This document shows, piece by piece, positions 13,139-21,650 of a stretch of DNA of 64,000 nt. The notes below the pieces were generated by a model. The model saw nothing but the letters and a program-made list of their open reading frames with translations, ran no database searches and was not told the DNA's origin. The position numbers were made by a program, and so were the translations under genes. This stretch comes from Escherichia phage phiC120, in sequence record KY703222, one strand, 5' to 3'. The number at the start of each line of letters is the position of its first letter. Positions within the stretch are counted from its first letter, which is position 1.

Positions 13139-13169
13139 GATAGTATCACACATCCATGTGCTTGTAAAC
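13139..13169 (-). promoter_or_regulatory. early-type promoter (GTTTAC -35, TACTAT -10) upstream of 12817..13110
   Basis: Minus strand reads GTTTAC-N18-TACTAT followed by RBS and ATG; same motif family recurs at 23600 and elsewhere. Confidence 0.5.
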
Positions 13170-15256
13170 TATCCTTGAACAAATTTAAACGGAACCGATT
13201 CCAAATCCATTAAAGATGCTAACAGTTTCAAACCTTTAGGTGCACTAGTTTTTTCTACAAATGAAGAGAATGATACCGGCTCATCTGATTCGATTTCACC
13301 CGTCATAGCAACCACTTCGCCTGTTTCCATGAGAACATCACCATCGTAAATGACAGCTTCGTCCAACTGGTCTGAGGACATGACTTCAGCTTGAATAAAT
13401 TTAAGGTTGGATTCTAAACCTGCACCAGTGTCAGATGACGCATCTGTAATTTTATTTATCTGCAAGAGAATGCCTCTAGGCAAAATAATTTCTTGCTCAT
13501 TAGGGTGATTACTCAACTGTCCTGGATAAATCACGTTAACTTTATGAGCGCCATCAATAGCCCATCCAACGTTAACACGGATTTGTTCTGGTGCATGCAT
13601 AGCTGTTCTTACTTGACTAGGAGAAATAGTAACACCTTCGTCATTATTGTCAATGTTAAGCTCTTTGCGAACTTCTTCAGGAGCAAGTCCAAGGGCAACG
13701 TTTTCTTTAAACCCGCCAAAAATAATAGGAGCTAATGAAGTAGAAACATAGTTTCTGAAGTAGAATACCTTATTTTTAACCATTGCTTCGTAAATAGGCA
13801 TTCTGATAGACTGAGCTCTATACAACGTTAATCCTTCAGGTAAACGGTCTCCATTTAAAAACGCCGAATCAAGACCATCAATAGCGCGTTTAACTTCATC
13901 TTCATCTGCAACATCATAAAAATCCGGTTTATAGCGACCTAACAACATATTATTGATATCGGTATACGCAGAAGAGGCATATTCACGAATAGCTCGTTTT
14001 TCAGCAACAGAGTATTGTTTAGGGTCCCGATTCATTGTTATATTAAAGGTGCCTCTAGCCGATTCTCGTGCATAAGTATACATCACATTAGACAAGAACG
14101 CTGATTTACGTTGTTTCCAAGTTTTTTCAGATACTTCAGCTAAAACGTCATCAGCCAGTTGGAAATTATCTCGTCTAAAATCTTCAAACCATTCGTCTCT
14201 AATAGAGTCTGCAATTTCGTTTGCAGCTTCAACAAAAGCAGCTAATGCTTTAACAGATGTTGTTTTTTCGGTTTTAATTTTCTTAGCAAACTTTTCTAAA
14301 GTCGGCTTAATAACACTACCATAAGAAACTTCATCAGCAAATCTAAAGGATTCATCAATACGATTATAAATCTTATTTTCGATATCAGCAACTAAAGTGC
14401 CTTTTGCTGTGGACGATGCTTGGGCTAGTACGATTTCATATGCTTCAGGAAGTAATTCGGCTGTAGCCGGGCCACTAACTTCTTTAGCAGAATTTTCGTA
14501 TTTCTGGAATAACTCACCTTCTTGTCGGTCAGCTTCTAAAGATTGGCTCGCGGCAATAGCGCGACGAGAAATTTTAGTACGAGCAATAACAGGCTTATCT
14601 TTACGTTTTTCTTCTACAGCAGCAATAGAACCAGCGATAGCCGTTTCTTTGGTGACTTTTTCGCCAGTCTTTTTACTCACATAAACTTCACCAACATCAG
14701 AATCTACTTTCGTGTACAACTCTGTGTTAATGTTAGGGATGCCTTTAATATCTTCAATGTTGGCATTTTTACGAACCATCATCACATATGTGTGTTTACC
14801 TGTGAATTGATACATTGCAGACAATACTTTAAAACGACCACCAGTTTTAGTAGAAACTAAACGAGCAAGAAGAGTTTGAAGTTGTTGTCCACGTCCTTTC
14901 AATTTCTTGGTAGGAAATCGGAACAGAACTGCATCCATACGAAGAGCTTTAACCTGTTCATACACTGTATTGAAAATGGTGTTGATTGCATCAATAGGAG
15001 CAGGACCAAGGCCATTTTTCAATTCAGCGAGATTACCCTTTTCAGATAGACTCATAATAACAACATGAGCGTATTTGTCGCCAAGTTTAACTTGTTTTAC
15101 AGCATCACCTTCGGAAAGGTAAGAGAATAAGCGAACTACAATGTTTGTATCGATATCACCAATTTTCCAGACTTGTGGAACTTTAGCTTTAGGGTTCAAA
15201 TTGACGACAGGAAGACTGCCTTCAGATTCAAACACTTCATTTAATTGTTCAGACAT
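13169..15256 (-). CDS. alt: Alt ADP-ribosyltransferase (virion-packaged, modifies host RNA polymerase)
   Basis: 695 aa (T4 Alt about 682 aa); position between gene 54 and DNA ligase as in T4; ART-like region near FYFRNYVSTSL. Confidence 0.8.
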   Translation of the reverse strand: MSEQLNEVFESEGSLPVVNLNPKAKVPQVWKIGDIDTNIVVRLFSYLSEGDAVKQVKLGDKYAHVVIMSLSEKGNLAELKNGLGPAPIDAINTIFNTVYEQVKALRMDAVLFRFPTKKLKGRGQQLQTLLARLVSTKTGGRFKVLSAMYQFTGKHTYVMMVRKNANIEDIKGIPNINTELYTKVDSDVGEVYVSKKTGEKVTKETAIAGSIAAVEEKRKDKPVIARTKISRRAIAASQSLEADRQEGELFQKYENSAKEVSGPATAELLPEAYEIVLAQASSTAKGTLVADIENKIYNRIDESFRFADEVSYGSVIKPTLEKFAKKIKTEKTTSVKALAAFVEAANEIADSIRDEWFEDFRRDNFQLADDVLAEVSEKTWKQRKSAFLSNVMYTYARESARGTFNITMNRDPKQYSVAEKRAIREYASSAYTDINNMLLGRYKPDFYDVADEDEVKRAIDGLDSAFLNGDRLPEGLTLYRAQSIRMPIYEAMVKNKVFYFRNYVSTSLAPIIFGGFKENVALGLAPEEVRKELNIDNNDEGVTISPSQVRTAMHAPEQIRVNVGWAIDGAHKVNVIYPGQLSNHPNEQEIILPRGILLQINKITDASSDTGAGLESNLKFIQAEVMSSDQLDEAVIYDGDVLMETGEVVAMTGEIESDEPVSFSSFVEKTSAPKGLKLLASLMDLESVPFKFVQG

Positions 15257-15296
15257 AGTGTTTTCCTTTTAGTAATAATTTATATTTATGCCAAAA

Positions 15297-15312
15297 AGAG
15301 CCCGAAGGCTCT
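15297..15312 (-). terminator. hairpin AGAGCCCGAAGGCTCT with T-run on minus strand
   Basis: Perfect inverted repeat with CGAA loop; T-run follows on minus strand. Confidence 0.45.
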
Positions 15313-15500
15313 TAATCCACAATCGGGAGCAAAGTACGATAAACTTCAAAATTAGGGCCTTTTTCGTACCCATTAACGTTATCTACGAAAACCCGATACG
15401 AATTTTCATTAGGAAAATCTAATATAATCTGAGAGCAAGAGGTGGAAACATCTCCACCATCCTTCTTAGCTACAATAACTGTTTCTAAATAAGCTTTCAT
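15312..15500 (-). CDS. hypothetical small protein (62 aa) between DNA ligase and alt
   Basis: ORF 15312..15521 in track; internal Met at 15500 gives a TAATG overlap with the ligase stop. Confidence 0.4.
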   Translation of the reverse strand: MKAYLETVIVAKKDGGDVSTSCSQIILDFPNENSYRVFVDNVNGYEKGPNFEVYRTLLPIVD

Positions 15501-16993
15501 TATAAACCTGTCTGGGACCACGGTCCAAATACGTCTTCAAATGAATCCGCTTCTGTTTTATCAAAACGGAACCCTTTAATAATTGGAAGGAAAATACCTA
15601 CAGTGCCTTCACGTCCTTTAGAATGAACCCAACCATTGCATTCACAATCAGCAATACGTCCAATCAATTTACCTTCACGAGCTTCAGCCATTAATCGTTC
15701 ACGGTCTAAATCATGACGCTCATCTAAAGGAATAAGAACCTTTACACCATCAACTGTTTTATGAGTTGTATCTTTAAACCCTGAACCACAATCGGTTGTA
15801 ATACGACGACAACGTGATACGAGTTCGACACCACCTAATTTGTTAGGGTCTTTAGAGTGTTCATAATATCCCACAACTTCTAAAGCGATATCAATAACTT
15901 CTTTAAATTTAATTAGGTTCTTAGAGCGTTTGTTTTCCCAATATGAATCACGGTTTTTAAGGATAATACCTTCAAGACCTTGGTCAACATATTTTTTATA
16001 AACCACTTTAGCTTCGTCAAGATTACGAACTAACTGATTTTCAATTGGCTCAATTCGCTTAAAGCCTTCAGCCATATTTTCAAGAGCAGCAAAACGAACA
16101 TCGTATTTCTGACCTTTAATTTTGCCATCAGAATAGACTTCATCTAAAGGAACATAGTCCCAGGCTTGAAGAACCATACCTTCAGCTTCTTTAGGAGAAA
16201 TAGTCCCTTGAAGAGATTTATTTGCTAAACCGTTTGAAGTGCTACGGTCTGCAACTTGTACTTCTTCGGATTCTTCATTATCGCCAAATAAGAACGACAG
16301 GTCATTTCCTGAGCTCACAGCCTTTTTAATATCAAATGAATGATAAACTAATTCGCCGTCGATTAAAACCCCATTAGGGTGTCTTTCACGAGCTTCTTTA
16401 GTCATTTCCATTAGTTCATCTGCTAATAGGGTAAGACCATGGTATTCATTACCAGCACGAGAAAAGAATTGAACACCATCATCGCGAACTTCAGCGAAAC
16501 AACGAGCACCATCTGCTTTTAATTGAGCAAATGCAGGCCATTTAATATTTTTAGTAATCAATTTCTCGTCATATGCAGATGCTAACATCTGCGGTTGCAA
16601 TTGAATAAGTCCAGGCCATACCTTATTCGCGATAGACACTGAAGCACCTACTTCAAGGTCGCGCATCATTACACGACGTAGTACTTCAACATCATCAGGT
16701 TTACCGTCAGCGATATAACCCATGAGCTCTTTAATTGCAGCATTACCGGTGAGTTTACGAGTGGCTAATGTGAACTCAATAAAATCCAACATGTCATCTA
16801 ATTCAAGAAGACCATACGCTTGAGACCTTTCACCTGGTCCTGGCCATTTCTTAATATAATACTGGATACCACGTGCATATGTTAAACGATACACACGTTC
16901 AAGTAATTTGTTGTCCTTATTTTTCTTAAGGATTTCCTGTTTTGTTTTAGTAGAACCGATCGCAGCTATTTGGTTTAAAATATCTAAAATCAT
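15500..16993 (-). CDS. 30: DNA ligase (gp30), ATP-dependent
   Basis: 497 aa; MILDILNQIAAIGSTKTKQEILKKNKDNKLLERVYRLTY... close to remembered T4 DNA ligase; KADGAR adenylation motif. Confidence 0.95.
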   Translation of the reverse strand: MILDILNQIAAIGSTKTKQEILKKNKDNKLLERVYRLTYARGIQYYIKKWPGPGERSQAYGLLELDDMLDFIEFTLATRKLTGNAAIKELMGYIADGKPDDVEVLRRVMMRDLEVGASVSIANKVWPGLIQLQPQMLASAYDEKLITKNIKWPAFAQLKADGARCFAEVRDDGVQFFSRAGNEYHGLTLLADELMEMTKEARERHPNGVLIDGELVYHSFDIKKAVSSGNDLSFLFGDNEESEEVQVADRSTSNGLANKSLQGTISPKEAEGMVLQAWDYVPLDEVYSDGKIKGQKYDVRFAALENMAEGFKRIEPIENQLVRNLDEAKVVYKKYVDQGLEGIILKNRDSYWENKRSKNLIKFKEVIDIALEVVGYYEHSKDPNKLGGVELVSRCRRITTDCGSGFKDTTHKTVDGVKVLIPLDERHDLDRERLMAEAREGKLIGRIADCECNGWVHSKGREGTVGIFLPIIKGFRFDKTEADSFEDVFGPWSQTGL

Positions 16994-17259
16994 TTGATAT
17001 CCTCGATTTTGGTTACGGTTCTATTATAAGCCACTTCATCTAGAAGCGATTTCAGCGTTTTCTGATAAGTGGTAATCCGTTTACCGAGTCCTTCAACATA
17101 ATATTCTGAAATGTAGATAAACCCTTGTTCAACACACTCTTTAAATATTTCTGCGTCTTTTACTGAACGAAACATTGGCCAGTCTCGAAAGAACATGTTA
17201 ACGTGACCGTAGTCACGCGTTGTGTTTTTGCCATCTGTAATATCATGAACTACAAACAT
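16990..17259 (-). CDS. hypothetical protein (89 aa), 30.1 position
   Basis: ORF with ATGA overlap to the ligase gene. Confidence 0.45.
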   Translation of the reverse strand: MFVVHDITDGKNTTRDYGHVNMFFRDWPMFRSVKDAEIFKECVEQGFIYISEYYVEGLGKRITTYQKTLKSLLDEVAYNRTVTKIEDIK

Positions 17260-17268
17260 AATTAACCC

Positions 17269-18093
17269 TTAACAATTTATAGACCAAGTCCATTTAGACG
17301 AATCTAAAGGAAAGTTTTGAATCGTCCACCATGGCTGCATATCGGTTGGTCCTGGGGTTCGCCAGGTATATGGAGTACGTGTTGTCGAGGGGCCACCAAT
17401 TTGATTAGGCCATGCACCTGGACTTGTTGCACCAGATTCTTTAAGCAAATCCGCCAATCGTTTTAAAAGGTCTTCACGATCTGAATCTGAATTATGCTCG
17501 GGTGGAACCAAACGAGATTCAATATCATCCCACGTGTGTACACGTTGTGCAGTACGAGGAATATCATCACGTTCACCACGGGCCAACCAATAAATCGGTA
17601 CATTAAGAATTTCTGCCGCATGGTCACAATGATGAGCTAAATCGTCAACATAACAAATCACGTTATATTTTGTTTTAGCTAGTTCGAATAATTGTTCTTT
17701 TGAAGAATCATGACCACACATCATTACTTCAGAGAAAGCGCCTGGGAACAAAGCGTTCAAATTAAATTGTCTATTCAATCGAGCATCAATTGAATCACCT
17801 AGCGCCGTCACGGCTACAAAATTATAGTCTTCTTTTAGTTTATTGATAACTCGAAGAGCATCTGAATAAGGCGCTAAGTAACGAATAAAATCAGAGCGAT
17901 TATATTTTTCTATTAATTGTTTACCGAGGTTATCGTCGGTATTGAATAGTTTACCAGGAGAAATAAATTTTTCGTCCTGAATCATTTTTAAAATATGTTC
18001 TAATGGAAGATTATATTTTTGGGCAAAATAAGGAAGTCCAGATTGCCAGCTTAAACATACACCATCAATATCAGTCAAAATAGTAGGCTTCAT
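17269..18093 (-). CDS. HAD-like hydrolase motif protein, 30.2 position
   Basis: 274 aa; N-terminal ILTDIDGV resembles HAD motif I (DxDG); later ICYVDD resembles motif IV. Confidence 0.5.
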   Translation of the reverse strand: MKPTILTDIDGVCLSWQSGLPYFAQKYNLPLEHILKMIQDEKFISPGKLFNTDDNLGKQLIEKYNRSDFIRYLAPYSDALRVINKLKEDYNFVAVTALGDSIDARLNRQFNLNALFPGAFSEVMMCGHDSSKEQLFELAKTKYNVICYVDDLAHHCDHAAEILNVPIYWLARGERDDIPRTAQRVHTWDDIESRLVPPEHNSDSDREDLLKRLADLLKESGATSPGAWPNQIGGPSTTRTPYTWRTPGPTDMQPWWTIQNFPLDSSKWTWSINC

Positions 18094-18557
18094 AAAGAGT
18101 CTCTTAATAGGTTTAACACATCGATAAATTCAGCTTCAGTTAGTATTGTATCATCTTTTGTTAGGTGGCTGGCCATGCTATGCTTCAAAATTTTTCCTTT
18201 AGAGGCTTGTAAGGCATCGCGAAACCCCTTGTTTTGGATCGCTGCTTCAAAATATGCATTTGTGTATAATTCTTTCCATGCTTCAGAGTATCTTGAAAAC
18301 GGAACTCCTAACCAGAAGAGAGTTCCACGGTCCTGAGCTCTTGCATAAGACCTTCCGGCTTGCTGTGCAACCAATCCAGATAACCCAAATATACGTCTTT
18401 GTTGTTCAACATTTTTCACCTTACATCCTTGGAGAAATCCTTCAAGACCTCCGAATTGAATACCATCCATAACAAAAGGCCATTGAGCAAAGTTACTTAG
18501 TGCACATGACGGCCACTTGAAATTGCTTCTTATCTCTAACTCAGACATCTTTAACAC
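18090..18557 (-). CDS. NADAR/YbiA-like (DUF1768) domain protein, 30.3 position
   Basis: 155 aa; SNFAQWPFVMDGIQFGGLEGFLQGCK parallels the E. coli YbiA core FSNFAAWPIKVDGKTWPTSEHYFQAQK as remembered. Confidence 0.6.
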   Translation of the reverse strand: MLKMSELEIRSNFKWPSCALSNFAQWPFVMDGIQFGGLEGFLQGCKVKNVEQQRRIFGLSGLVAQQAGRSYARAQDRGTLFWLGVPFSRYSEAWKELYTNAYFEAAIQNKGFRDALQASKGKILKHSMASHLTKDDTILTEAEFIDVLNLLRDSL

Positions 18558-18759
18558 TTATAATTTCAACATCAGCCCAATGGCCGTATCCTGGTATACG
18601 GTCTTCGATAGATAAATTTCCGTCATTTTTAGGCATTTTAATTGACGTAACGTATGGTTCTAAACGGTTTTCTGCATAATATGGAAAAACGTCCGTCACA
18701 CGATAAGTAACTTCAATCATTTCTGTACCAAACAATTTCTGGATTAATTTTTTAAGCAT
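18541..18759 (-). CDS. hypothetical small protein (72 aa)
   Basis: ORF in a tightly packed minus-strand early cluster. Confidence 0.4.
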   Translation of the reverse strand: MLKKLIQKLFGTEMIEVTYRVTDVFPYYAENRLEPYVTSIKMPKNDGNLSIEDRIPGYGHWADVEIISVKDV

Positions 18760-18763
18760 TTTA

Positions 18764-19051
18764 TTAGAACCTCATCTGAAAGCCGTGTGATTTAACATTA
18801 CCGCCGCCAATATCAGAAATGTTAATTTCACTTGCAATCGAAGGATCGATGTCAATTTCACGATTAAGTTTAGTGATAGCTAAAGTATCATGTCCATTTA
18901 CTGTACGAAACTCCAAAGGACATACTACGTTGACATAGTGTTTAATTGACTCGCTAGTAGGTTGCAAATGGGCCGGAAGGTCTTTAGGTGCTTTAGAGAA
19001 AACAACTTCACAAAAGTTTTTGCGGGTATCAAAATAAGTGGTCATAAACAT
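18764..19051 (-). CDS. hypothetical protein (95 aa)
   Basis: ORF in a tightly packed minus-strand early cluster. Confidence 0.4.
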   Translation of the reverse strand: MFMTTYFDTRKNFCEVVFSKAPKDLPAHLQPTSESIKHYVNVVCPLEFRTVNGHDTLAITKLNREIDIDPSIASEINISDIGGGNVKSHGFQMRF

Positions 19052-19067
19052 AATATTTTCCTCAATT

Positions 19068-19083
19068 GGGAGCCGAAGCTCCC
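19068..19083 (-). terminator. hairpin GGGAGCCGAAGCTCCC (intercistronic)
   Basis: Perfect inverted repeat with CGAA loop between two ORFs. Confidence 0.45.
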
Positions 19084-19090
19084 AGTTAAA

Positions 19091-19456
19091 TTAGATATCG
19101 AATTCATTAAGAACTACATCAAAGATTGCTTCGAGATGTTCAGGTTTAGCTCGGTTACTCAGGATATGACGAATCCAAGTTTTAACCAAAAGTTTACGAT
19201 TGACACCGTTCCAGCAAGGATGAGTACCTAAATCACGCTGACGGAAATCATCATCTAATGCAATTTTGAAGTTGGAACCTTCCATCGTGATTGAAACCGT
19301 GATGCCATTTTCAAATCGCATATAAACGTAATTAGGAGTCATGCACTGTTCGATTTCACAAACTGTACCGTTTTTGTGTTTCCATAAGCAAATAACTTCA
19401 GAAGAACCAGCGATACCGTTAGAAACATATTTACGTTCGAAGTTGATGTAGTTCAT
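19091..19456 (-). CDS. hypothetical protein (121 aa)
   Basis: ORF preceded by early-type promoter and RBS GGAGAATAAA. Confidence 0.45.
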   Translation of the reverse strand: MNYINFERKYVSNGIAGSSEVICLWKHKNGTVCEIEQCMTPNYVYMRFENGITVSITMEGSNFKIALDDDFRQRDLGTHPCWNGVNRKLLVKTWIRHILSNRAKPEHLEAIFDVVLNEFDI

Positions 19457-19497
19457 TTTATTCTCCAGATGTTTAAGTTGTTTGTTGGTACAGGTCT

Positions 19498-19526
19498 ATA
19501 ATAACATAACCTGTACCAAAGTAAAC
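19498..19526 (-). promoter_or_regulatory. early-type promoter (GTTTAC -35, TATTAT -10) with -10 inside inverted repeat GGTACAGG/CCTGTACC
   Basis: Minus strand GTTTAC-N17-TATTAT; the -10 is bracketed by an 8-bp perfect inverted repeat. Confidence 0.5.
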
Positions 19527-19530
19527 TGTT

Positions 19531-19899
19531 TTATGCAACTTTAATCCAATTGTCTAAATTTAAAACACCTTTGGCTTTCATTTTTTCGATCAGGTTATCT
19601 GCTGTAATGCGTCCATTTTGATACCATGTAACATCTTCAGAGTAACCAGTTTCTTCGTCAACATATGTTTCTGAACGAATTTTACCTGTAATAATAGTTT
19701 TTAATTCGTATGTGTCACCTGTGAAAAAGTTTGCTAACACAATTTTCCAAGAGAAATCATTTGAAGGACCTTCAGGAGTTGTACAACCTACGATCTCAAA
19801 TTGCTCTTTGTATAACATCCACTGGAATTCTTTAATTTCGATAGCTTTATAACCGTCGTGGTCTTTACATTTGATGTATGAGTTCAGATTGATTTTCAT
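19531..19899 (-). CDS. hypothetical protein (122 aa)
   Basis: ORF preceded by early-type promoter and RBS. Confidence 0.45.
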   Translation of the reverse strand: MKINLNSYIKCKDHDGYKAIEIKEFQWMLYKEQFEIVGCTTPEGPSNDFSWKIVLANFFTGDTYELKTIITGKIRSETYVDEETGYSEDVTWYQNGRITADNLIEKMKAKGVLNLDNWIKVA

Positions 19900-19941
19900 T
19901 TTGTTCTCCAGTTTGTTTTATTGATTAGGTGGTACAAGTCT

Positions 19942-19970
19942 ATAGTAACACATCCTACAGGAGAGTAAAC
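19942..19970 (-). promoter_or_regulatory. early-type promoter (GTTTAC -35, TACTAT -10)
   Basis: Minus strand GTTTAC-N17-TACTAT upstream of ORF 19531..19899. Confidence 0.5.
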
Positions 19971-20006
19971 ATCTTTTTAAACTTTTTCTGCCCTAAACGC
20001 ACAAAA

Positions 20007-20024
20007 GGGAGACCGAAGTCTCCC
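20007..20024 (-). terminator. hairpin GGGAGACCGAAGTCTCCC with T-run on minus strand
   Basis: 18-nt perfect stem-loop; the identical element recurs at 35112. Confidence 0.55.
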
Positions 20025-20029
20025 TAAAA

Positions 20030-20206
20030 TTATGCAACAACCTTTCCAAAACGAGAAGCATCATCTCGAAGAACTGCACGTGCTCTGCGCATGATCTTCT
20101 CAACTGTTTGATTAATACGAGAGTTCGACCCACGCTTGTATCCAGCGCGTTTAGAATCACCGACTTTCTTTTCAACTGCTTTCTTTGCTTTAGTTTGTTT
20201 TGCCAT
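20030..20206 (-). CDS. small basic protein (58 aa)
   Basis: Hand-translated MAKQTKAKKAVEKKVGDSKRAGYKRGSNSRINQTVEKIMRRARAVLRDDASRFGKVVA; lysine/arginine-rich; below the 60-aa cutoff. Confidence 0.4.
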   Translation of the reverse strand: MAKQTKAKKAVEKKVGDSKRAGYKRGSNSRINQTVEKIMRRARAVLRDDASRFGKVVA

Positions 20207-20578
20207 TATAAATTCTCTTTAAATGAAAATGCAGGACTTATTGACATTGCCTGCTCAAGCCCTCAAGGGGAACATAGGTTTTTGGATATTTAACGACCAG
20301 GATAACCATAAACCCGTCATCATACCTTATAGCTCTTATCTGTTGCACACCGTTAGCTTAAAGGTTCCGGGTTCGATTTCTCGAGGATAAGATATATACT
20401 GATGGATATATAGGCCTTGAGGCGTACTCCCGATTAGCCATCACCTCGGGGTAGCATGCACTTACCGCTATAAGAACAACATTCAAGAGGTACACCGTAA
20501 AATTGTCGGGGCGGTACTTCTAAAACATACCGATTCGCAAATCGATAATCAGACAATTCGACGGCTCCTCGATTTAAC

Positions 20579-20827
20579 TTACTTCAGGGTAATAACAAAA
20601 TGACGAACTGCTTTACGAGCTGCTGAAGCCAGAGGCTTAGCATATTTCAATTCATCTTTCTGAGCCAGTACATCACGAAGATCGGCCTGTGCTGGATTCA
20701 GATGTTTGAAATACTGTAAGATTTCCAGTGCTTCGGCTTCAACATCAATTGACGCACCGTAGTTTTCGTGACCATTATTCCATGCATGGCGTTGCAGTTC
20801 AAGAGCGTGTTGTAATTGTTTAATCAT
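20579..20827 (-). CDS. rIII: RIII lysis-inhibition accessory protein
   Basis: 82 aa; MIKQLQHALELQRHAWNNGHENYGASIDVEAEALEIL... close to remembered T4 RIII. Confidence 0.9.
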   Translation of the reverse strand: MIKQLQHALELQRHAWNNGHENYGASIDVEAEALEILQYFKHLNPAQADLRDVLAQKDELKYAKPLASAARKAVRHFVITLK

Positions 20828-20951
20828 TTTAAATTCTCAATTCGAGATAATATTTAGTAGCCACGTTCGTCTGAATTTCACCTTCTTTCGACAAGTCTCT
20901 CAGTTGTAGGCTACCGCTTAGAAGAGTGTTCTCTTCATATAGTTATTTATA

Positions 20952-21284
20952 TCACTTATAAAGACACGGAATAGCTTTATAGTGGCATGTTACGAATTTC
21001 TGTTTAATTTCTTTAGGTTGTTTAAGACCTAAAGCCACAAATGGATGTGGAACATTTCGAATTTGTCCAACTGGTAGTGGAGTCAAATCACCGGCTTCAA
21101 CAAAACCTTCAGGAACATCAGGACCTACAGAATGAACTACACATAGTTCAGGAACTTCACCTTGAACACGTTTACCAATCACAAGTCCTGATTCGGTAAC
21201 TTCTTCATCACCTGCTTGAGCGGGTTCAGAAACCAGAATGACATATTCACCAACAGCACGAATTGGGAGTTGTACTTCAGACAT
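20952..21284 (-). CDS. 31: gp31 co-chaperonin (GroES-like)
   Basis: 110 aa; [34 protein letters not shown]... close to remembered T4 gp31. Confidence 0.9.
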
Positions 21285-21314
21285 CTTATTTCCTTGTTGT
21301 TTGACGATAGATTA

Positions 21315-21339
21315 ATAATACCATACTATTCGTAAAGCA
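21315..21339 (-). promoter_or_regulatory. middle promoter (MotA box TGCTTTA plus TATTAT) for gene 31
   Basis: Minus strand TGCTTTA, 12-nt spacer, TATTAT, then RBS and the gene 31 ATG. Confidence 0.55.
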
Positions 21340-21341
21340 TA

Positions 21342-21650
21342 TTACATAAGAAGCAAACGTTCGACCGGAGTACCATCAACCGAAATTACTTTATCAAGGC
21401 GGAAAGAACGCCACTGACCTAACTCGGTATCGAATGCTCGAACTGATTCACGAGGTTCAGAACGAACTTCTGTTGATGGGTTACTATTTTCATATTTGAC
21501 TTCAAGTTCATCGCGCGAAGCAAACATAGTGCGTACATCACCGTTAGCCTTTTCAAATACAACACAATGAACGCCTACAGACAGAATAGTTTTAATACGT
21601 TCACGAAGAACCATAGTTTCTTGTTCAGTTAAAATCATATTATTCACCAC
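21342..21650 (-). CDS. hypothetical protein (102 aa), 31.1 position
   Basis: ORF between cd and gene 31. Confidence 0.45.
   Translation of the reverse strand: MVNNMILTEQETMVLRERIKTILSVGVHCVVFEKANGDVRTMFASRDELEVKYENSNPSTEVRSEPRESVRAFDTELGQWRSFRLDKVISVDGTPVERLLLM

Follow-up and report, generated by a model that had tools for sequence, protein, structure and literature searches.

An intact orthologue of the T4 anti-DarT gene adfN (30.3) in an RB69-like Escherichia phage, with a predicted role against DarTG1

The stretch of the Escherichia phage phiC120 genome analysed here (record KY703222; 64,000 nucleotides, hereafter the window) carries in its 30.x cluster a small gene that had been proposed, from a reading of the sequence, to encode a NADAR enzyme serving as a counter-defence against DarT toxins. 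Does this allele specify such an enzyme, and has it been kept intact in this phage? The function of the gene is already known, having been published in 2024-2025 for an orthologue with 96% identity, and the proposed counter-defence role has been demonstrated experimentally for that T4 orthologue (PMC11825919, PMC11125620). Our analysis puts at roughly 90% the probability that the minus-strand gene listed first in Table 1 is an intact orthologue of T4 30.3 (adfN), encoding a stand-alone NADAR-fold ADP-ribosylglycohydrolase that counters DarTG1.

T4 gene 30.3 was characterised and renamed adfN, for anti-DarT factor NADAR, by Johannesman et al. (Nat Commun 2025, PMC11825919), who mapped it via recombinants of RB69 with T2 and T4 selected for escape from DarTG1. 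Phages T4 and T2 deleted for adfN no longer plaque on DarTG1 hosts, adfN expression rescues RB69 on DarTG1, and the purified protein strips ADP-ribose from DarT1-modified DNA, which the E36A variant does not; in vivo, E36A and K43A keep partial rescue, and adfN is without effect on the thymidine-modifying DarTG2 (PMC11825919). In vitro, T4 gp30.3 was found to hydrolyse guanosine-ADPr and not thymidine-ADPr (Cihlova et al. Toxins 2024, PMC11125620), and in a T4 transposon screen (HIDEN-SEQ preprint) insertions in 30.3 were lost on DarTG1 with a log2FC of -7.25. In uninfected cells AdfN-T4 fails to neutralise DarT1, its rescue of non-T-even phages is only partial, and its discoverers postulate an additional T-even factor (PMC11825919). 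Our literature searches on AdfN and gp30.3 turned up no relevant work beyond the discovery report, the 2024 study in Toxins and the HIDEN-SEQ preprint. In this body of work adfN stands as the first described orphan antitoxin-like enzyme of a lytic phage that enzymatically reverses the DNA modification made by a defence system.

In the 2.6 kb surrounding the gene, the window shares 97.8% identity with Shigella phage Shf125875 and 97.0% with RB69; with Shigella phage ESh27, identity is 97.8% over 24 kb. Because of this high DNA identity we assign the window, on sequence grounds, to a T-even phage of the RB69-like group (Mosigvirus). Its genes follow the order alt, alt.1, 30, 30.1, 30.2, 30.3, 30.4, 30.6, 30.7, 30.8, 30.9, rIII, 31, as do those of RB69 and T4, and the position of adfN between 30.4 and 30.2, upstream of the DNA ligase gene, matches the annotations of both. 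Genes 30.4-30.3-30.2-30.1-30 form a tightly overlapping string, called early/middle; a scan of 15200..21500 for sigma-70 promoters and terminators returned 21 sites against 18.6 expected, which is no better than shuffled sequence and therefore says nothing on early timing. No darT1 toxin gene adjoins adfN, whose neighbours are 30.4 and 30.2, and no Pfam ART domain was present among the seven flanking proteins scanned; adfN is therefore an orphan antitoxin-like gene and not part of a TA module.

A 695-aa open reading frame on the minus strand (13169..15256) lies at the alt position, about 3 kb from adfN, and in records that match this region an Alt-like ADP-ribosyltransferase is annotated. We take the alt product to be an RNA polymerase ADP-ribosyltransferase packaged in the capsid. 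With an Alt-like frame and adfN in one region, this phage would thus encode both a writer and an eraser of ADP-ribose in a single early region.

Table 1. Coordinates of adfN, its key codons and neighbouring genes in the window, with NADAR loci of other phages and fused NADAR relatives
Feature	Position	Strand	Remark
adfN (gene 30.3) CDS	18090..18548	-	152 aa, full length; mechanical ORF runs to GTG at 18557
E36 codon GAA	18441..18443	-	catalytic Glu; mutated in AdfN-T4 E36A (PMC11825919)
K43 codon AAG	18420..18422	-	ADP-ribose-contacting Lys; mutated in AdfN-T4 K43A (PMC11825919)
H123 codon CAT	18180..18182	-	last beta-strand, 'LKHS'; marks gp30.3 clade
Residues 138-152 (C-terminal helix)	18093..18137	-	helix absent from truncated RB69 allele
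Equivalent of T4 ORF 30.3'	18185..18412	-	interrupted by stop
Gene 30.4	18541..18759	-	72 aa, phrog_2042; stop overlaps adfN start by 8 nt
Gene 30.2	17269..18093	-	HAD-fold phosphatase-like protein; start overlaps adfN stop (ATGA)
NADAR locus in another phage, L038	3001-3450
NADAR locus in another phage, L040	3001-3450
NADAR locus in another phage, L039	2995-3513
NADAR locus in another phage, L036	2998-4013
Fused NADAR relatives, P0257, P0188, P0199

The open frame runs without interruption over 18090..18557 on the minus strand, just as the original prediction had it, and counts 155 aa from its GTG. This GTG, at 18557, is not conserved in T4. Nine bases 3' of it, at 18548, stands a conserved ATG, which the annotations of both T4 (459 nt) and RB69 use as the start; the true product is therefore almost certainly the 459-nt, 152-aa one, and the predicted length of 155 aa needs correcting. 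The ATG overlaps the stop of the upstream frame, 30.4, by 8 nt (ATGTCTGA), and the adfN stop overlaps the start of the downstream frame, 30.2, by 4 nt (ATGA). Because inspection by eye found no evident Shine-Dalgarno motif before the ATG and the 30.4 stop overlaps it, adfN is probably translated by coupling to 30.4. T4 also has an annotated internal out-of-frame ORF, 30.3' (75 aa); the equivalent frame in the window hits an in-frame stop after 34 codons and is therefore not a conserved gene in this phage, which makes 30.3' a doubtful gene, probably not a real one.

Searched against Pfam with hmmscan, the window protein matches PF08010 (Phage_30_3) over profile positions 1-138 of 138 (E 1.8e-69; 232.3 bits, with a cutoff of 36), and it also matches phrog_652 (E 2.4e-51). 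The same search gave no match to PF08719, the NADAR model named in the original prediction, at E<=1; read literally, this is the outcome that was to refute that prediction. We judge it a false negative that stems from the way Pfam divides the superfamily, with gp30.3 covered by a model of its own, the one matched here at 232 bits; a PF08719 match is a detection criterion for NADAR proteins and not their biochemical definition. The predicted likeness to E. coli YbiA proved real, weak as it is in a pairwise comparison: YbiA (2b3w) is the sole PDB sequence match, at E 0.6, and the match spans 'SNFAxWP..DG....E.f.Q..K', exactly the motif that had been noticed at the outset, with E36 and K43 aligned to a Glu and a Lys of YbiA in the HMMER alignment. 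When a profile was built from 63 diverse family members, YbiA was again the top match, now with E 0.002.

Structure prediction, which had been suggested as a check, gave a fold that matches NADAR structures only. In a profile search, 1378 relatives were retrieved from 1.84 billion representatives; PF08010 was matched by all of the multi-domain relatives scanned (56/56), and eight of these 56 also matched PF08719, the best at E 1.2e-6, below the gathering score. The fold match, the profile match to YbiA and these intermediate sequences hitting both Pfam models together confirm the NADAR fold for this allele. Since the same three lines tie PF08010 to NADAR, we rejected the missing PF08719 match as a refutation of family membership.

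The active-site residues expected of the family are retained in the window protein. E36 is invariant and K43 nearly invariant across an alignment of 63 family members, and H123, also invariant in these 63 members, replaces the Glu or Asp of other NADARs. This agrees with the published description of gp30.3-type NADARs as having His in the last strand where other NADARs have Glu or Asp (PMC11125620). The predicted model places a strand at residues 120-123 and a helix at residues 138-151. That the best PDB match, by structure as well as by sequence, is YbiA might point to a housekeeping N-glycosidase of the YbiA type, acting on riboflavin-pathway intermediates, but we find this scarcely credible. 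Where the YbiA family has Glu in the last strand, the gp30.3 clade has His, and this clade reportedly groups closest to those NADARs that are associated with DarT1. The T4 orthologue has ADPr-DNA as a substrate, and it is not evident why a virulent phage should require riboflavin damage control.

The allele was compared with those of both T4 and RB69. The window protein and AdfN-T4 are of equal length (152 aa) and 96% identical, and the six substitutions between them (K11R, V60A, E89P, I120V, M125I, H128G), described as conservative-looking, leave untouched E36, K43, H123 and all positions that are invariant in the 63-member alignment. In RB69 an extra T after gene nt 411 brings a stop right after T137, and the C-terminal helix is gone. 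A three-way DNA alignment of window, RB69 and T4 puts the insertion site between window bases 18138 and 18137, where the T is absent (alignment column 425: 'ACTAAC-TGAAGC' in the window vs 'ACTAACTTGAAGC' in RB69). RB69 is the only DarTG1-sensitive phage among the T-even phages tested, and its allele is truncated, which lowers activity; its relatives Bas46 and Bas47, like all other T-even phages tested, have full-length alleles and are DarTG1-resistant (PMC11825919). The window allele reads as full length and looks functional, and from its length and its lack of the RB69 frameshift we predict that this phage is DarTG1-resistant.

The opposite reading, that the allele is decaying or inactive as in RB69 and gives no protection, appeals to the frameshifted, non-functional allele of this closest classical relative and to the truncated or fused gp30.3 fragments that are common in databases. 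It is highly improbable, in our estimate, given that the 152-aa frame is intact and free of the T insertion, that every invariant residue is retained and that none of the RB69-private changes S2P, R51H and R52S occurs in the window protein, and that the full-length alleles of Bas46 and Bas47 correlate with DarTG1 resistance. Many natural gp30.3 entries (P0007, P0012-P0017, P0019) are either truncated, to 86-121 aa, or fused to fragments of neighbouring families (PF11097, PF06919 Gp30.7, PF06019 Gp30.8), which suggests that the 30.x cluster has repeatedly undergone frameshifts or deletions and that RB69 is not the only case.

DNA identity to T4 is unusually high (84-93%) over the 30.3-30.7 stretch, window positions 18090..19455, and is 41-75% over the ligase gene, the 30.1 gene and the 3' part of 30.2. 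Between window and RB69, identity is 93-95% inside adfN and thus lower than in the flanks (97-100%). Together with the RB69-private changes, these patterns fit decay of the frameshifted RB69 allele or past exchange with T4-type phages.

In the mechanism shown for the T4 orthologue and favoured here for this intact adfN allele, the DarT1 toxin of a host DarTG1 system ADP-ribosylates guanine bases in phage DNA and blocks its replication, and AdfN cleaves the N-glycosidic bond that holds ADP-ribose to guanine, restoring replicable DNA. Catalysis would proceed via E36 and K43, with a putative contribution of the clade-specific H123 in the last strand. Full activity would require the helix at the C-terminus (residues 138-152), and the full-length allele of this phage may thereby confer the DarTG1 resistance that RB69 would have forfeited when a frameshift removed the helix. 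Gene structure, orthology, fold, residues and intact frame were all observed in this analysis, and it is because of the fold, the residues, the intact frame and the 96% identity that we infer for this allele an activity like that of AdfN-T4. What the window adds to the published work is modest: an RB69-like phage that carries an intact allele. This supports the view that RB69 owes its DarTG1 sensitivity to a frameshift of its own and not to a trait of Mosigvirus, and it predicts that this phage, unlike RB69, forms plaques on DarTG1 hosts.

The additional T-even factor postulated for AdfN directs attention to the genes that overlap it. The original prediction had suggested a functional link between the NADAR gene and its neighbour 30.2, which it described as a HAD-motif protein. 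This description holds, with all four motifs present (I-IV: D8, D10, T96, K132 and D150/D151, invariant or nearly so in 28 homologues) and with the DxD, S/T, K and DD signature of HAD enzymes set on a Rossmannoid core with a cap. Residues 1-220 of gp30.2 were modelled with mostly high confidence, and its C-terminal tail (about residues 220-274) is disordered, W/P-rich and highly variable between phages.

A two-enzyme module, in which gp30.2 processes the released ADP-ribose or is itself the T-even-specific factor, would account for the ATGA overlap found here and in all close relatives, for the adjacency of 30.3 and 30.2 even in Acinetobacter phage KARL-1, where gp30.3 is just 45% identical, and for the near-identical phyletic counts of the two genes (1509 phage genome records for 30.3 vs 1437 for 30.2, in the same genera). 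Two NADAR relatives, P0188 and P0199, are moreover fusions to NT5C, a HAD 5'-nucleotidase, in the same N-to-C order. The synteny survey, however, confines the linkage to part of the Straboviridae. Two or three ORFs separate 30.3 from 30.2 in RB43, Proteus Pm5461 and a further locus (L016), and in Aeromonas-type phages, Serratia CHI14, Klebsiella 17-11, Vibrio phages, Pseudomonas Milchi and Ralstonia RSP15 the NADAR gene has another location, and no homologue of 30.2 was found up to 3-4 kb from it; where 30.2 is found in distant phages, it adjoins the DNA ligase gene (Straboviridae) and not adfN. Nor did a gp30.2 HMM detect any fused gp30.2-like domain in 146 representatives of the gp30.3 family, and hhalign of the gp30.2 family against the P0188 NT5C domain gave a marginal result (48% probability over 68 columns).

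Experimental data point the same way, in that insertions in 30.2 were neutral on DarTG1 in the T4 screen (HIDEN-SEQ; log2FC -0.12, p 0.61) and AdfN is active alone in vitro (PMC11825919). The evidence against a link between adfN and 30.2 is thus stronger than the evidence for it. On the synteny, the fusion search, the hhalign comparison and the transposon data we rejected gp30.2 as a partner of AdfN, as unsupported; a two-enzyme module is very unlikely, and the same results argue against gp30.2 as the missing T-even factor. The proposed functional link is not supported, with adjacency lost in distant phages and 30.2 insertions neutral on DarTG1.

The upstream neighbour gives a different picture. 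In the T4 HIDEN-SEQ screen, 30.4 was the only gene besides adfN to be significantly depleted on DarTG1 (log2FC -1.79, adj p 0.014), a result that the authors of the screen leave without discussion. Translational coupling of adfN to 30.4 would explain why 30.4 appears as the other, much weaker DarTG1-conditional gene, and coupling or polarity is the simplest reading of its depletion. If the T-even factor is encoded in the same overlapping gene string, gp30.4 is, on its depletion in the screen, the best candidate, a better one than gp30.2; that AdfN needs it in this capacity is nonetheless quite unlikely, and the available screen data do not separate such a cofactor role from a polarity effect. 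Upstream of adfN, phmmer found homologues of gp30.4 only in close T4/RB69-type relatives, the group in which AdfN is 'domesticated', and none was found near distant NADAR genes by single-sequence phmmer on ORFs, a search that could miss remote homologues. The comparative work thus leaves the HAD neighbour aside as the missing cofactor and 30.4 as a small lead.

Reversal of DarT1 modification may also be one function of the enzyme among others, or a secondary one, its chief substrates being ADP-ribosylated RNA or tRNA, cytidine-ADPr, or soluble ADPr-derived immune signals. Soluble ADPr substrates were predicted for phage NADARs by Iyer et al. (PMC9503650), and the AdfN authors speculate on other defences that ADP-ribosylate DNA or RNA. 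Genes of the gp30.3 type lie within tRNA gene clusters in Serratia CHI14, Klebsiella 17-11 and Ralstonia RSP15; in Pseudomonas phage Milchi the NADAR gene immediately precedes a gene annotated as DprA-like, and one annotated as a metal-dependent phosphohydrolase is close by; by our own reading of the sequences two further loci (L023, L027) have a similar downstream ORF pair. One NADAR relative, P0257, is fused to the RNA 2'-phosphotransferase KptA/Tpt1. We consider a chiefly different substrate rather unlikely for this gene, since the T4 orthologue has a strong DarTG1-specific phenotype and acts directly on ADP-ribosylated DNA, and no substrate beyond ADP-ribosylated DNA and guanosine-ADPr has been demonstrated in the gp30.3 clade. 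Such a broader range is in any case compatible with the counter-DarTG1 reading and not exclusive of it. Relatives of the gp30.3-type NADAR occur fused to KptA/Tpt1, NT5C, ASCH, HD_4 and BspA-type LRR domains, and the fusions and the siting in tRNA clusters hint at RNA-related or soluble-ADPr roles for some members of the clade.

Compared with known systems, the window gene is closest to T4 gp30.3/AdfN, with which it shares the position between 30.4 and 30.2, the residues E36, K43 and H123, and the overlapping start and stop; T4 is a Tequatrovirus, whereas the window genome reads as Mosigvirus (RB69-like). RB69 is the nearest classical genome, collinear with the window in gene order and 97% identical in DNA over the region, and differs in being DarTG1-sensitive and in having, alone of the two, the T insertion, the helix loss and S2P, R51H and R52S. 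The NADAR antitoxins of the DarG1 type (DarT1-associated, BC4488-family), such as that of Geobacter lovleyi (8bat), have an N-terminal extension that the window protein lacks, are encoded beside the darT toxin, which the window gene is not, and carry Asp instead of His in the last strand; in uninfected cells DarG1 is not replaceable by the T4 orthologue. E. coli YbiA (2b3w) and Phytophthora PnNADAR (8bau), both PF08719 proteins, are 17-21% identical to the window protein, and enzymes of the YbiA type, which are linked to riboflavin metabolism, carry a last-strand Glu, in contrast to the His and the PF08010 membership of the window protein. AdfN-Bas32 and AdfN-Bas60 (T5-like, Vequintavirinae) resemble AdfN as orphan phage NADARs with activity against DarTG1 and specificity for guanine-ADPr, but they fall in different NADAR clades, derive from independent acquisitions and do not depend on T-even infection to work.
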